From Gemmatimonadota bacterium (GTDB lineage: Bacteria; Gemmatimonadota; Gemmatimonadetes; Gemmatimonadales; GWC2-71-9), in contig JAZDCY010000079.1 in NCBI GenBank assembly GCA_036679645.1, positions 1 through 22,127 of the forward strand: DNA of 22,127 nucleotides, read 5' to 3'. Shown in pieces: positions 5,013 through 14,587 of the stretch. Positions within the stretch are counted from its first letter, which is position 1, and the number at the start of each line of letters is the position of its first letter. Below the pieces are notes generated by a model. It was given only the letters and a program-made list of their open reading frames with translations, made no database searches and was not told the DNA's origin. A program made the position numbers and the translations under genes.

Positions 5013-5347
5013 ACCCCCCCGGGACCCCGGGCTCGCGCCCGGGGTTTGGTCGAGGGGGTTCAGCTCCCGGTCGCCCACCGGTACCGCGGACCCCCGGGCT
5101 GACGCCCGATGACCCCCGGGCTGACGCCCGGGGTTTGGTCGAGGGGATTCGGCTCCCGGTCGCCCCCGGGGCTAACGCCCGGGGTTTGGTCGAGGAGGTT
5201 CAGCTCCCGGTCGCCCACCGGTACCGCGGACCCCCGGGCTGACGCCCGGGGTTTGGTCGAGGGGGTTCGGCTCCCGGTCGCCACCGGTACCGCGGGACCC
5301 CCGGGACCCCCGGGACCCCCGGGCTGACGCCCGGGGTTTGGTCGAGG
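5013..5347. repeat. REP/BIME-like array of palindromic units (~67-bp period)
   Basis: Five copies of CCCCGGG-CT(GA)CG-CCCGGGG-TTTGGTCGAGG starting near 5025, 5114, 5164, 5232 and 5317, plus one partial copy near 5092; near-identical linkers; internal (GGGACCCCC)x3. Confidence 0.9.
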
Positions 5348-5447
5348 CAAATACCCACATAGTGGCGAGAGCGCCCCGCATGGTTTGACATTCGCCATCG
5401 CACGCGTGTGAATTGGACGACTGCAACGTCTCGCATGGAGCGTCCGC

Positions 5448-5768: not shown

Positions 5769-6233
5769 ATGCGTTCCCGGAGTTCACTTCCTTCGCTAGT
5801 GCTGAACGTGCCGGCTATAGCACGCCGGTCGCCGGACGCTGTGCAACTCCTGCTCGGATCGCCTGATACGGCCGATGGACCGCAGGTTTCTCTCCAAGTC
5901 AAGCGCACGTATCAACGTGGTCGGGTCGAAGTGGTTTTCGTGGATAATCACGTGAGATGGATCAAGCTGTACGACTGTCGCGGCCTTACCTTTAACCAAG
6001 ATGCTTTGCCGAAACTCGGCCTACCAGCGTCGCGTCCGACGTACCGGAACCCAGATCACGTGATGAGTTGGCAGAACATCCCACGCCTACAGGAAGTCAG
6101 TATCTATGCAGGTACGGCTGGGAAAGTCTCGTCGGTGTTGGTGTGCGTCGAGACAGCGCCGCAGGAAAAGAAAAAGGCCCCGCGCTCGTCGGGCGCGTTC
6201 TGGGTTCGGCGCCGCACTCCCACACCCGCATAG
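5769..6233 (+). CDS. Hypothetical protein
   Basis: Globular-looking ORF converging on the DUF411 gene; start uncertain (5691 or 5769). Confidence 0.55.
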   Translation: MRSRSSLPSLVLNVPAIARRSPDAVQLLLGSPDTADGPQVSLQVKRTYQRGRVEVVFVDNHVRWIKLYDCRGLTFNQDALPKLGLPASRPTYRNPDHVMSWQNIPRLQEVSIYAGTAGKVSSVLVCVETAPQEKKKAPRSSGAFWVRRRTPTPA

Positions 6234-6327: not shown

Positions 6328-6792
6328 CTAGTGGCGCTCGTACACGCTCGCGCTACCAGTTGAGTCAACTGCAAACACGTCGTAGTGCTCGGGGTTGGGA
6401 CCTTCCATGCCGGGTGATCCCGCAGGCATCCCAGGCACAACCAGTCCTACGATGGATGGGCGGTCCTTGAGCATCCGGCGGATCGCGCTCGCGGGCACAT
6501 GGCCCTCTACGACGTATCCGTCAATCACCGCCGTGTGACAGCCCGCGAGGTCGGCCGGAACCCCGTGCTCGGTACGAATGGTCGCCAGCGCATCCCAGCC
6601 ATCCACATCGTGCGTCTCGACCACGAAACCGTTTTCCTGTAGGTGAACCACCCACTGAGAGCAGCAGCCTCAGGTAGGTGTCTTGTAAACGGTCGCGGTC
6701 GGTTGGGCACCCGCCGGCTGAGTGACCACAAACCCTACAGTCACCGCAGCGATTGCCACCGCGCCCGCCAACCCGATCTTCCAATACCGCAT
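6328..6792 (-). CDS. DUF411 family exported metal-binding/thioredoxin-like protein; candidate selenoprotein (Sec41, UGCC)
   Basis: GGGAGG RBS, ATG 6792, signal peptide MRYWKIGLAGAVAIAAVTVGFVV, then VYKTPT-TGA(6672-6670)-GCCSQWVVHL in frame with CHTAVIDGYVVEGHVPA and VPGMPAGSPGME; 154 aa with read-through. Confidence 0.85.
6637..6669 (-). promoter_or_regulatory. Putative bacterial SECIS element
   Basis: After the UGA: GGCUGCUGCUCUCAG-UGGGUG-GUU-CACCUA-CAG; 6-bp stem, apical loop begins with G, 21 nt from the UGA. Confidence 0.6.
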
Positions 6793-6937
6793 GGTCAGCC
6801 TCCCAATGGTACGATCCGTCCCGGTGCTTTCCCGGGCTGAAGCACCCCGGCTCGGCGCGCTACGCGCGGAATACCTCGAGGGGTGTCCCCGTCGCCCGCG
6901 CCTGCATGGTGCGCCGCGAAGCGCCGGGCGCGTGTCT

Positions 6938-8170
6938 TCAACGCGCGAACCGCTCGCCGAGCAACTCCTCTACCAGCTCCGCAAATCCTCGCCGCAGCGC
7001 CTCGTGGGCGGCGACCAACGCCGGCCCGTAGAAGCCCGCGTGCACGCGCCGCACCGCGCCCGATCGATCGATGAAGACGGTGGTGGGAAACGCGATCGGT
7101 CCCGAGAGTTGTGGCTGCGTGGTACTGGGCGAGTCGCCGTCGTTCACGCCGGCCAGCAGTAACGGGAACTCGATCCCGTACTTCTCGCGATAGCGCCGCA
7201 GCAGCGCTCCATCCACCGCCGAGTCGCCCGTCACCTCGTAGGCCAGCCCCACGATCTCGAGCCCACGGTCGTGGTAACGCCGATAGAGATCGACCAGCGT
7301 CGGAGCGGCGTCGTGACAGGTCGGGCACCACGTGCCGAAGATGTCCACGATCACGACCTTGCCACGGAAGCGCGCGTCGGTATTCGTGACCATCTCCCCG
7401 TCGATTGACGGAAAGGCAAACTGAAAGGGGCCGCTGGTATCCACCCGCACGAGTTCCGTGGGTGGTGTCAGGTGCGGCCGACCAGTGGATCGCACGGCCA
7501 CGAACGGCGTTTGGGTGCGTAGCCCCGCGTGGAAGAGGCCGCGTAGCGTGTCGCCGTCGAGCCGGCCCGTGAGCATATAGACGAAAGATCCGTCGAAGTG
7601 CGCCATAGCGAAGCTGTCCGCCTGCGCGCCTCCCCAGAAGAGACCGTAGTCGCCCGAATTGGAGATGATGGTCCCCTCCAGCCCCAGCCCCGTGCGCCGC
7701 AAGTCAATCACGCGCGGGCTGGGACGCTCCTCCGGACGGAAGATCGCATCCCACTTCCCGGCGAGCACGCCGCCCGGCAGTTCGACAGGCCAATTGCCCC
7801 GAGAAGCGCGAAACGGAATCGTGCGCGGGCCCCGGTTGCCCACGTTGCGATAAAAGCCCACGAGGGAGTCGCCGCGCACGCTCGCGCGAATGGCGGCAGC
7901 GTAGTCGGCAATGCCTAGCAGAATCGAGTCGCCCTCGAGCGGCGTGACCTCCGAGAACGCGTCACACTTGGTCGCGTTGCAGAGCTGGCCCTCCACCGGT
8001 CCGCCCTCCGCGGTCAACACGATCTGAAAACGCAACGGCCCACCCGCGATGTCGAGCGCGGCACGCCACGATCCGACGAGCCGGTCGGAAACGCGTCGCT
8101 GCGCGTACGCGGTTTGGGCCGTGAGCGTCACGCAGATGAGCGCGGCCACCGTACCCATCCTTGCGATCAT
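6938..8170 (-). CDS. TlpA-family disulfide reductase with N-terminal beta-rich domains, exported
   Basis: FRGKVVIVDIFGTWCPTC and cis-Pro region FPTTVFIDRSG; ATG 8170 overlaps the upstream stop (ATGA); signal peptide ending AYA-Q. Confidence 0.9.
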   Translation of the reverse strand: MIARMGTVAALICVTLTAQTAYAQRRVSDRLVGSWRAALDIAGGPLRFQIVLTAEGGPVEGQLCNATKCDAFSEVTPLEGDSILLGIADYAAAIRASVRGDSLVGFYRNVGNRGPRTIPFRASRGNWPVELPGGVLAGKWDAIFRPEERPSPRVIDLRRTGLGLEGTIISNSGDYGLFWGGAQADSFAMAHFDGSFVYMLTGRLDGDTLRGLFHAGLRTQTPFVAVRSTGRPHLTPPTELVRVDTSGPFQFAFPSIDGEMVTNTDARFRGKVVIVDIFGTWCPTCHDAAPTLVDLYRRYHDRGLEIVGLAYEVTGDSAVDGALLRRYREKYGIEFPLLLAGVNDGDSPSTTQPQLSGPIAFPTTVFIDRSGAVRRVHAGFYGPALVAAHEALRRGFAELVEELLGERFAR

Positions 8171-8988
8171 GGCTCCGTCTCCTGCGACGCCGAGTGGTAC
8201 AGCTCGCCCGCCTCGACGGCGGACTCGATGGCGTTGCCGCGCCAAGGAAGCGGGCAGGGAAACACGCCATTGTAGGCGCAAAACGGGTTGCGCGCCCGGT
8301 TGAAGTCAGCACGATAGCGGCGGCCGCCCAGGGGAACGAGCGCGAGAAACCGGCCGGCGGGATACGTCCCGTGTCCATTGGTACCGTCACGGAAGAAGAT
8401 GTTCAGCTCCGACTCCTCGGATCCCGGCTCGGGCATGCTGTAGACGATGAGGCGAATTTGCTCGCCGGCCAACTCGCCTACGAACGTGCCGGCGAGCGTT
8501 GCCTCGATCTCGACACCGTCCAGACCGAGCATGCGGCGCCGCTCCCTGCGCTCCGGCGGTTCCAGCGTGCCACTCACGATCAGGGCTGGCTCGTATGGGT
8601 ACCATCCTGGGGCGTGCGTCTCCTCGAGCGGGCCGAACACCGTGACGACACCGTGGCGGCGGTTGCCACTCACGCGGACGTGCCATTCCCCGAACGCAAC
8701 GGCGCGGTTCCGAGGCACGGTTCGCTCGCCCTCTTCAGTCCGCAGCCTGAGTCGAAACCGTCCCCGGTGTAGCGTCGCGGCGGGTAGCTCCTCGAGCCCG
8801 GGCGCGCCGCCAGGCCCGAAGACCAACTCATCTTCCAGCGGTTGATGATAGATGGCAGCCGCCGGCGAGAGCGGCGAGGTCTCGAGCCAATGGGCGAAGT
8901 CGGTCCGTTCCGCCTGAACACCAGGCGGGGTCTGGGCGGCGAGCGTGGCAGCGCCGAGGGACGACCCGAGAAGCAACCAGATACGCAC
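8167..8988 (-). CDS. DUF1684 domain protein, exported
   Basis: FRDGTNGHGTYPAGRFL and DFNRARNPFCAYNGVFPCPLP motifs; GTG 8988 gives a signal peptide. Confidence 0.85.
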   Translation of the reverse strand: MRIWLLLGSSLGAATLAAQTPPGVQAERTDFAHWLETSPLSPAAAIYHQPLEDELVFGPGGAPGLEELPAATLHRGRFRLRLRTEEGERTVPRNRAVAFGEWHVRVSGNRRHGVVTVFGPLEETHAPGWYPYEPALIVSGTLEPPERRERRRMLGLDGVEIEATLAGTFVGELAGEQIRLIVYSMPEPGSEESELNIFFRDGTNGHGTYPAGRFLALVPLGGRRYRADFNRARNPFCAYNGVFPCPLPWRGNAIESAVEAGELYHSASQETEP

Positions 8989-9196
8989 GGGCGGTACGAT
9001 ACTACAGTTGTGCTGTAGGAGCGAGGGCATGTCGTCGATGGAACGCAGCGAACGCACATTGGGTTCCGCGTGTCATAGAGAACCAATCACAGACACCGCC
9101 CAGTCGCTGGTAATAGGGCTCGCCACCCTGCGATCAAGAGCCCATGGCACGTACCTGAGCTCCGCGGCCCACTTTCGCCTCCTTGGCGACACTACA

Positions 9197-11955: not shown

Positions 11956-11984
11956 TTGCATATAGTAGCACTATTTGCCATTCT
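11956..11984 (+). promoter_or_regulatory. Putative sigma70 promoter with overlapping palindromic operator
   Basis: TTGCAT-17 bp-CATTCT with TGn extension, 8 nt before ATG 11993; inverted repeat GCATATAGT-AGC-ACTATTTGC (11958-11978) spans the spacer. Confidence 0.5.
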
Positions 11985-11992
11985 ACTGGCGT

Positions 11993-13102
11993 ATGGTACG
12001 GAGACGATTCTGGATCAAACAGGTCGAGCAGGCGTGGAGAGAGAGATCGGTGATCTGGCTCTCCGGCGTGCGGCGCGTAGGCAAGACCTTCTTGTGCAAA
12101 GCGCTGCCGCGCGTCGCCTACTTCGACTGCGAGCTGCCACGGATTCGGAGGGAGCTACAGGATCCTGAGGCGTTCCTGGCCGGCGTCGCGGGCAAGCGCG
12201 TTGTCCTGGACGAGATCCACCGTCTTCCGCATCCGACCGAGTTGCTCAAGATCGCCGCGGACCATTTCCCGGATACCCGTATCATCGCCACCGGCTCCTC
12301 CACGCTGGGCGCCACGGCGAAGTTCCGCGATACGCTGACGGGACGGAAGCGCGACATCTGGTTGACCCCCATGGTCACTCATGACCTCATTGATTTTGGA
12401 CAGGACCAGTTGGAACACCGGTTCTTGCGCGGTGGCCTGCCTCCGTTTTTCCTCGCACGCACGTTCCCCGAACGAGACTTCCAGGAGTGGATGGACGCCT
12501 TCTGGGCAAAGGACATTCAGGAACTGTTCCGGCTCGAACGTCGCGGTGCCTTTCTCCGGTTCATCGAGCTGCTGCTCACCAACAGTGGCGGGATCTTCGA
12601 GGCCACTAAATACGCTCGCCCATGTGAAGTCTCCCGCACCACTATCACGAACTATCTGCACGTTCTTTCGGCGACACACGTTGCCCACGTCGTCCGGCCG
12701 TTCAGTCGGCACCGCGCAACCGAGATCGTTGCCGCCCCCAAGGTATACGGCTTCGATACTGGGTTCGTGGCGTACCATCGCGGATGGGACACTCTCAGGG
12801 CAGAGGACATGGGAGTCCTGTGGGAGCACTTCGTCCTCAATGAAATCCACGCGGTTCTGCAAGCCCGGCCGATCAATTACTGGCGGGACAAGCGAGGGCA
12901 CGAGGTCGACTTCGTCTATTTGAAACGGGGGGCGCCGCCGGCGGACTCGTTCGACCCAAGAAACCTGCTAGCGTTCCGAAGAAGATACGCTGCCGGCAAT
13001 AACTGCGTCGTGGCCCGGGACGTTGACCGCGCATACGTGCGGCGATTCTCGGGGCTAGCGGTGACGTTCCTCCCGCTCCCTGCGCTGCTCAAGAAGCTCT
13101 AG
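11993..13102 (+). CDS. AAA_14 ATPase with C-terminal DUF4143 domain
   Basis: Walker A GVRRVGKT, Walker B VVLDEIH, ATGSS, LTGR, GGLP, PKVYGFDTG, YWRDKRGHEVDFV. Confidence 0.9.
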   Translation: MVRRRFWIKQVEQAWRERSVIWLSGVRRVGKTFLCKALPRVAYFDCELPRIRRELQDPEAFLAGVAGKRVVLDEIHRLPHPTELLKIAADHFPDTRIIATGSSTLGATAKFRDTLTGRKRDIWLTPMVTHDLIDFGQDQLEHRFLRGGLPPFFLARTFPERDFQEWMDAFWAKDIQELFRLERRGAFLRFIELLLTNSGGIFEATKYARPCEVSRTTITNYLHVLSATHVAHVVRPFSRHRATEIVAAPKVYGFDTGFVAYHRGWDTLRAEDMGVLWEHFVLNEIHAVLQARPINYWRDKRGHEVDFVYLKRGAPPADSFDPRNLLAFRRRYAAGNNCVVARDVDRAYVRRFSGLAVTFLPLPALLKKL

Positions 13103-13423: not shown

Positions 13424-14151
13424 TTAGAGCTTTACCAACTGTCCGGCCGTCTCTCTGTAGGAAACGTGGCCTGCTGCAAACACGCCGGGTAGCGGAGCAA
13501 GTGGCATGAGCGCGTTCGCGAGGCCTGAGTTCATCCAGCCTATGGTCTCAAGGACTTCTGTGTGCGCAGCAGCCATGTCACGATCCCAGATGGGTTCATG
13601 GTGCGAAACCCTGTTTCTCACTTCCCGCAACCGGTCGGCGCGGTGGTAGATCTGGGAGCGAGTTCGCTTTGCTTTCGGCAGGAAGGGAAACCCGGTGTTC
13701 AGCATCGCGGGCCACAGGGCGGGTCCGGAAGTGCGACCCTGCTCGTACGGCCGTTTGCAAAGACCGACCCAGAAGCCGAAGCCGAGCCTGCTATCAGGCG
13801 GCCCGGCGTAAGGGGCTTCTTTGTTCGTAGTAGCGTTTCCTTCGCCTCAGCTACGGCCCGAAGCTCTTTGTCTTCGAGGAGGGTTGGATCAGCATCAAGC
13901 CAGCAATCGACGTCGCGGAACTTCAGCTTCGACTCATCAATGAACTTCACGGAGTTATAGTAGATGTGATTGCGAAACGTGACTTCTAGCACATGTAGAA
14001 TGGGTTGCATGGCCGCGCCGAGGGCGAGATTCCATATGTAGCGCGCCACGGCGTCTCGGGAATCGCTATCCTCTTTTGTAGCATAGGCTTGGAGGCGCTC
14101 TTCAGAGAGCGCCCACTTAGGGCTGGCAAGGGAAATGGGTTGATTTTTCAA
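13424..14151 (-). pseudogene. Abi-like (Abi_2/AbiD-AbiF-related) HEPN protein, frameshifted
   Basis: N-half LSEERLQAY...RYIWNL...LEVTFRN; C-half LGFGFW...LWP...LREVRNRVSHHEPI (RxxxxH); the halves join at ATA GCA GG CTC GGC TTC (~13787) with one base missing. Confidence 0.85.
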
Positions 14152-14513: not shown

Positions 14514-14587
14514 TAGCGGAGGAGGGACTCGAACCCCCGACACGCGGATTATGATTCCGCCGCTCTAACCAGCTGAGCTACTCCGCC
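14514..14587 (-). tRNA. tRNA-Met (CAT), probably elongator; CCA not encoded
   Basis: GGCGGAGTAGCTCAGCTGGTTAGAGCGGCGGAATCATAATCCGCGTGTCGGGGGTTCGAGTCCCTCCTCCGCTA folds as a cloverleaf; lacks initiator hallmarks (C1:A72 mismatch, GGG/CCC anticodon stem). Confidence 0.95.

Follow-up and report, generated by a model that had tools for sequence, protein, structure and literature searches.

A gene of the CopG/DUF411 family in a Gemmatimonadota bacterium (GenBank assembly GCA_036679645.1) carries an in-frame TGA at the position of the first cysteine of the CxCC motif. From sequence evidence, this UGA (codon 41) is very likely decoded as selenocysteine (Sec). Taken as a whole, the gene very probably encodes a likely exported, 154-amino-acid thioredoxin-fold protein with a predicted CopG-type copper cluster in which selenium stands in for one sulfur. 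The window analyzed, i.e. the whole stretch of 22,127 nucleotides of contig JAZDCY010000079.1, contains the gene as a single frame of 154 codons on the minus strand (6792–6328), interrupted once, by the TGA. A sequence-only reading of the window had pointed to a ribosome-binding site, an ATG at 6792 and a frame continuing beyond the TGA to a complete C-terminus, and had observed that the list of open reading frames held only the downstream 107 amino acids. All of this was borne out (Table 1), the list entry covering only 6328..6651. The public protein record for the locus is a 98-amino-acid fragment (P0003) without signal peptide and without the CxCC motif. A contig of word depth 94, which is probably source data and not independent, spans the gene with zero differences and shows TGA.

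The N-terminus was judged by eye to resemble a signal peptide, with a basic N-end, a hydrophobic core and an A-G-A sequence, and with neither a twin-arginine motif nor a lipobox cysteine; residues 1–30 had low pLDDT in an AlphaFold2 model. Cleavage would quite probably take place near residue 29 and deliver the protein to the periplasm. That the locus yields two products, a 40-amino-acid peptide and a re-started C-terminal protein of 98–107 amino acids, is extremely improbable: such fragments do stand in the protein database (P0003–P0005), but the fragment would be devoid of the signal peptide and of the entire CxCC motif, and a downstream re-start would leave unexplained the conservation of the in-frame G-C-C right after the TGA.

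Table 1. Features of the read-through gene and its surroundings (coordinates of the window)
Feature	Position	Strand	Basis
Read-through gene CopG/DUF411, 154 codons, one in-frame TGA	6328..6792	-	Sequence, PF04214, 6WIS match
Shine-Dalgarno-like GGGAGG, 6 nt spacer to ATG 6792	6799..6804	-	Sequence
Likely cleavable signal peptide, residues 1–29	6706..6792	-	By-eye reading and hydropathy
TGA codon 41, putative selenocysteine, first position of U-G-C-C, context YKTPT-TGA-GCCSQW	6670..6672	-	Alignment to 6WIS
SECIS-type hairpin GUGGGUG-GUU-CACCUAC, loop 6648-6646 (+22..+24)	6639..6655	-	Folding, four bSECIS criteria
Cys85-His86, equivalent to Cys54-His55 of 6WIS	6535..6540	-	Alignment; invariant among aligned homologues
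His98 (EGHVP), equivalent to His67 of 6WIS	6499..6501	-	Alignment
Met122-x6-Met129, CopG/CutG copper-binding methionine pair	6406..6429	-	Alignment; M-x6-M motif as given in PMC8456105
Stop codon TAG	6330-6328	-	Sequence
Terminator-like hairpin and T run, ~130 nt past the stop	6165..6197	-	Consensus match only

The read-through protein matched PF04214 with an E-value of 5.8e-26 (90.4 bits, above the gathering cut-off of 27), and its sole sequence match in the PDB was 6WIS/6WJE (E 2.7e-29), a structure titled copper resistance protein CopG. An AlphaFold2 model computed with Cys in place of Sec (pLDDT 86) superposed on 6WIS (Foldseek E 3.7e-15, TM 0.92 by target) and showed the same thioredoxin-like fold with a C-terminal extension. 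Thioredoxins and glutaredoxins were the next matches after CopG, thioredoxins scoring much weaker (TM about 0.45). The CxCC motif, the two methionines and the histidine ligands all align to 6WIS, codon 41 corresponding to C13, C43 to C15, C44 to C16, C85 to C54, H86 to H55, H98 to H67, M122 to M90 and M129 to M97; the placement of the TGA at the first conserved Cys of a DUF411 protein, as the sequence-only reading had it, was thereby confirmed. CopG is described as residing in the periplasm, where its CxCC motif and two methionines bind four coppers, and a role in oxidising copper or handing it on has been proposed (PMC7558416, PMC8456105). With CopG of Pseudomonas aeruginosa (DUF411, PF04214; 6WIS/6WJE; Hausrath et al. 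2020, as cited in PMC7558416, PMC8456105 and PMC8872213) the protein shares the fold (rmsd 1.3 Å), 42% identity, the motifs x-G-C-C, C-H, E-G-H and M-x6-M, and a likely N-terminal export signal. Unlike in the P. aeruginosa protein, the first motif Cys is here replaced by a UGA-encoded residue followed by a SECIS-type hairpin, and the gene lies outside any cop/cus cluster. CutG of Rhodobacter capsulatus, encoded in the cutFOG operon, is also similar, its C40-x-C42-C43 and M120-x6-M127 matching U41-G-C43-C44 and M122-x6-M129, but it is an all-Cys protein co-transcribed with a multicopper oxidase (PMC8456105), a neighbor found at 2 of 90 TGA loci. The protein database also holds a protein of 230 amino acids (P0002) that has a CACC motif and in which a DUF411-like repeat occurs twice in tandem.

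The TGA was surveyed in relatives of increasing distance. Among 61 close genomes the gene was found in 40, with one TGA in 10 of the 42 matches and a TAG in one weak partial match; at codon 41, the 30 loci retrieved from close genomes had TGA (9) or Cys (21). Of 301 genomes of the phylum, 236 carried the gene, and among the 150 matches listed, beyond which lay 107 more, 19 contained one TGA and none another stop. In species-level genomes, a TGA-anchored pattern returned TGA-form DUF411 genes in 118 of 120 matches, ca. 480 being estimated in total. TGA forms occurred in about ten phyla (Acidobacteriota, Chloroflexota, Gemmatimonadota, Rokubacteria/Methylomirabilota, Pseudomonadota, Myxococcota, Binatota and others), the closest named records being Gemmatimonadota MAGs. 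An open control by metagenome scan, in which TAA, TAG, TGA and TGG were all permitted, gave 113 homologous sequences in 120 matches, 112 of them with TGA and one with TGG, and none with TAA or TAG. Three matches on viral contigs, considered as possible phage copies, were chance matches and not DUF411.

After deduplication the set comprised 233 TGA genes and 68 Cys genes; some tallies take in the unpublished genomes G016, G099, G131 and G185, and one of the 68 Cys controls comes from G131, but none of the conclusions rests on these genomes. The TGA was always at the same codon in all 233 distinct homologous genes, and the second and third motif Cys were free of stops in all 301 genes, such stops being excluded by construction in the genes derived from the pattern. 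Where enough DNA was available, at least 30 open codons preceded the TGA in 222 of 223 TGA forms, and a hydrophobic segment was present upstream in 212 of 223. The methionine pair was kept in 223 of 225 full-length TGA forms, and the counts for the pair and both histidines span 223–225 of 225, the histidine motifs owing partly to the method of collection. In genome G032 (91% complete, selB found, selA not), the TGA-form gene (L298) appears out of frame near its C-terminus. A nonsense mutation or sequencing error in a pseudogene might be suggested by this copy, by TGA being one base away from TGC and TGT, and by UGA being the main stop in the genome. That explanation is effectively refuted by the 233 distinct genes with TGA at one codon, by frames intact on both sides of it, by the lack of stops at the other two motif cysteines, and by the 112 TGA against a single TGG, a codon equally one step away.

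A FastTree tree of 319 rows and 112 columns implied 23 changes between Sec and Cys, only two of which are forced by well-supported branches. Contrasts between Sec and Cys forms are contrasts among kin; supported branches give two independent pairs, which is not enough for a test. A candidate co-variation of Sec with a Ser-to-Gly/Ala change before Cys85 (18/21 TGA forms vs 11/68 Cys forms of the phylum) was unsupported, and the change is treated as a lineage trait because Ser is retained in 136 of the 233 TGA forms and there are not enough independent pairs. Two genomes, G001 (L007, L297) and G178 (L174, L305), each have DUF411 in both forms, one copy with TGA and one with Cys; next to the Cys copy of G178, but not next to its TGA copy, lie a sigma factor and a fragment resembling a P-type ATPase. 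Loci L163 (G092) and L167 (G127) are sister genes from one genus (support 98), one with Cys and one with TGA, the Cys gene retaining the stem with a GCC loop and the TGA gene having the loop GUC. They constitute a natural pair for studying gain or loss of Sec.

The sequence-only reading had described a hairpin with a G-initiated loop 21 nt after the UGA. The hairpin is present at +15..+31, with a 3-nt GUU loop at that distance and a stem of 7 bp, one more than had been drawn, and folds on its own with −7.5 kcal/mol. Bacterial SECIS elements, as summarized in Fig. 2A of PMC13188914, have a loop of 3–9 nt, a stem of 4–16 bp, a G in the first two loop positions, a spacing of 16–37 nt and a minimum free energy of −7.5 or lower; evaluated with a script of our own, the hairpin falls within all of these limits, in energy only just. 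Compared to dinucleotide shuffles, the folding energy was not beyond chance (z of −1.3 to −1.4 for three of four lengths and −0.2 for the longest). This test not being significant, it was replaced by a null model of synonymous recodings with the protein held fixed, together with a control of Cys forms; the peptide W-V-x-H-L by itself forces part of the stem, Cys forms included.

Only 0.9% of 2000 synonymous recodings reached −7.5 kcal/mol. TGA forms of the phylum had a mean hairpin energy of −5.96 versus −3.13 for their synonymous null, while Cys forms had −2.49 versus −2.48. Energies were below the null mean in 19/21 TGA forms of the phylum and in 84/114 and 86/98 TGA forms of the other sets, compared to 27/68 Cys forms. 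Six outer pairs with a G(G/U) loop at +22/23 were found in 19 of the 21 TGA forms of the phylum and in none of its 68 Cys forms. CTA, a Leu codon that is rare across the genome (3.5%), closes the stem in 11/21 TGA forms and in at most 2/68 Cys forms. At the loop codon, TGA forms of the phylum have Val or Gly replacing Asp or Glu; Val or Gly also occurs there in 9 of 117 Cys proteins of the database. The hairpin in the TGA forms of the phylum is under selection, and this selection, seen only in TGA forms, is a further argument against a pseudogene. The SECIS element is built inside a conserved helix, its cost to the protein in this phylum being the change from Asp/Glu to Val/Gly at the loop codon. 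This type of hairpin is not universal, being found in 111 of 233 TGA forms, among them 1 of 26 from Chloroflexota and 7 of 36 from Acidobacteriota. For the Chloroflexota TGA forms (among L038–L155), no consensus fold was found in +1..+60, and these may use another type of SECIS or another signal.

The genome, 92.7% complete, encodes the machinery for Sec insertion: selA (E 3.5e-144), selB (E 2.8e-107), selD, which itself carries an in-frame TGA, and tRNA-Sec, the sole UCA tRNA found (76 bits as tRNA-Sec). Genome-wide recoding of UGA was considered and rejected, since release factor RF2 is present, tRNA-Trp has the anticodon CCA and UGA is the commonest stop, ending 837 of 1535 long ORFs. Variants of tRNA that insert Cys at UGA are known in some bacteria, and UGA could in principle be read as Cys by such a SECIS-dependent tRNA, or as Cys, Trp or Gly through general recoding. 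Besides RF2, the use of UGA as a stop and the anticodon of tRNA-Trp, the identity of the only UCA tRNA found and the presence of selA and selD speak against this, leaving it very improbable. Decoding as Sec was supported, and with it the earlier proposal of a UxxC (UGCC) selenoprotein. Three findings had been named as contrary to that proposal, namely a genome devoid of Sec machinery, reads with TGC or TGT, and a TGA unique to the strain with no conserved hairpin. What was found instead were selA, selB, selD and tRNA-Sec, a sole covering contig with TGA, and 233 homologues sharing the TGA, with the hairpin in 19 of the 21 TGA forms of the phylum.

A loose filter combining motif and hairpin was passed by 82 UGA sites of the genome, mostly noise; of five looked into, four lie in catalogued selenoprotein families (two DUF3179, one SelW-like, one AhpC/TSA) and one has no family match. 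In these five genes the hairpin loop begins 17–22 nt past the UGA, one DUF3179 gene having the identical GUU triloop, and GUU, GGUCU or similar loops stand 3' of the UGA in the DUF3179, SelW-like and Prx-like genes. The other likely selenoprotein genes of this genome are two tandem DUF3179 genes, genes for SelW-like, AhpC/TSA and exported thioredoxin-like (APTUGGC, no family match) proteins, and selD; their loci are G000 C8:99779-102060 (L342), C58 near 50580 (L345), C32:5934-6578 (L344), C17:31616-32194 (L343) and, for selD, C5 (L004). In the 50 TGA-form genomes checked for sel genes, of 118 available, selB was found in 47 and selA in two of the remaining three, so that 49 of 50 had one or the other. 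The background is high, with selA in 54/61 relatives and selB in 54/61 genomes of the control class, and co-occurrence therefore says no more than that TGA forms belong to lineages that use Sec.

By Pfam, the neighbors of the gene are a TlpA-like thioredoxin, directly upstream, and DUF1684. The upstream genes on the same strand are 6938-8281 (-), for a TlpA/ResA-like thioredoxin (CPTC) whose N-terminal part is long, and 8167-9057 (-), with DUF1684. The TlpA-like neighbor is not kept in the two genomes of the same genus. Linkage to copA, cus or cueO, typical of CopG genes albeit not defining, was not found at the locus; copA and four multicopper-oxidase domains are on other contigs of the genome. 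A scan of the largest ORF per side within about 1–1.5 kb of 90 TGA loci (86 ORFs upstream and as many downstream) gave two clear metal-related neighbors, both multicopper oxidases, and up to five possible ones; among 65 of the 68 Cys loci, a P-type ATPase or RND neighbor was found in four, as possible metal genes. No conserved operon around DUF411 was seen among these 90 TGA and 65 Cys loci. Because metal neighbors are few at both, TGA and Cys forms are both considered mostly orphans in these phyla. In R. capsulatus, deletion of CutG is reported to cause only a mild copper phenotype (PMC8456105). The gene probably encodes a stand-alone housekeeping protein, not part of a resistance operon.

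Elsewhere in the window lie genes for a PEP-CTERM protein (1583-2326, -) and an AAA_14/DUF4143 ATPase (11975-13102, +), and a tRNA-Met (14514-14587, -) adjoining a short ORF (13699-14151) that looks Abi-like and has no Pfam match. At positions 5015-5350 a GC-rich palindrome with GGTTTGGTCGAGG after it occurs five times, at spacings of 51–89 nt, in what looks like a REP-type cluster; 25 near copies of this unit are spread over 13 contigs of the genome.

Judged from its fold and kept ligands, a CopG-like copper-cluster function is reasonably likely for the protein, the gene neighborhood lending nothing further to this reading. An alternative is that it is a selenoprotein acting as a periplasmic UxxC thiol/selenol-disulfide oxidoreductase, in which U41 attacks and C44 resolves, copper being secondary or absent. 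The thioredoxin fold, the thioredoxins and glutaredoxins as next structural matches, the TlpA-like gene directly upstream, and the peroxiredoxin, DsbA, MsrA or cytochrome c biogenesis genes that adjoin some TGA loci would all be compatible with such an enzyme, and among selenoprotein redox motifs in Table 1 of PMC13188914, UxxC with a leading Sec is the most frequent. However, the methionine pair and both histidines, needless in a plain thioredoxin, are kept in nearly all full-length TGA forms, the likeness to CopG is far above that to thioredoxins, and the TlpA-like neighbor is not kept in the two same-genus genomes, making the oxidoreductase alternative unlikely. The protein resembles thioredoxin-fold UxxC selenoproteins (Trx, Grx, Prx-like, DsbG-like and SaoT in that table) in its fold, in having Sec first in UxxC and in a SECIS within the coding region, but differs by the extra Cys of CopG (UGCC), the His and Met ligands and the C-terminal extension. 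Sec has been proposed as a heavy-metal ligand in other predicted metal-handling selenoproteins, namely the SO_0444 Cu/Zn efflux transporter, the TIGR01525 P-type ATPase, a CopZ-family (2Fe-2S)-binding protein and MbdU (PMC13188914); these are unrelated families, whereas for DUF411 the solved structure of a Cys homologue shows a multi-copper cluster at the motif carrying the Sec.

The mechanism favored for the CopG-like selenoprotein is as follows. SelB with Sec-tRNA would very probably bind the GUU-loop hairpin and put Sec at codon 41. In the periplasm, U41, C43/C44, H86, H98, M122 and M129 would, with fair likelihood, bind copper in the manner of CopG, with the protein interconverting Cu(I) and Cu(II) or handing them on. 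A selenolate is ionised at neutral pH and is a softer donor; Cu(I) capture or redox cycling would be faster with it.

DUF411/CopG is itself a known family, and its Sec form is apparently an uncatalogued selenoprotein family. DUF411, CopG and PF04214 are absent from the 119-family Table 1 of a May 2026 review (PMC13188914) and, by term searches, from the four supplements of deep-Sep (PMC12013277), where positive controls worked, and from the main texts of BSepDB, SelCysML and the Haft and Gwadz preprint. No NCBIfam model matched the protein. In the literature searched, which left subscription journals and the BSepDB family table outside its scope, no paper linked DUF411 with a selenoprotein, and selenocysteine together with CopG and copper led only to two unrelated genome papers; DUF411 as such is named in nine papers. 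On balance, and by a modest lean, the evidence favors a widespread uncatalogued selenoprotein family in hundreds of uncultured species, with Sec as a direct ligand of the predicted multi-copper cluster, repeated exchange of Sec and Cys, and one of each in some genomes. The finding adds to the bacterial selenoproteome a family that catalogues built on homology overlook and gene callers cut short, with ~480 stretches estimated in species-level genomes from a narrow pattern. If true, it would be a natural copper-selenolate cluster protein, and, as the copper-cluster structure of a Cys homologue is solved, a direct comparison of Sec and Cys forms could test selenium as a copper ligand.
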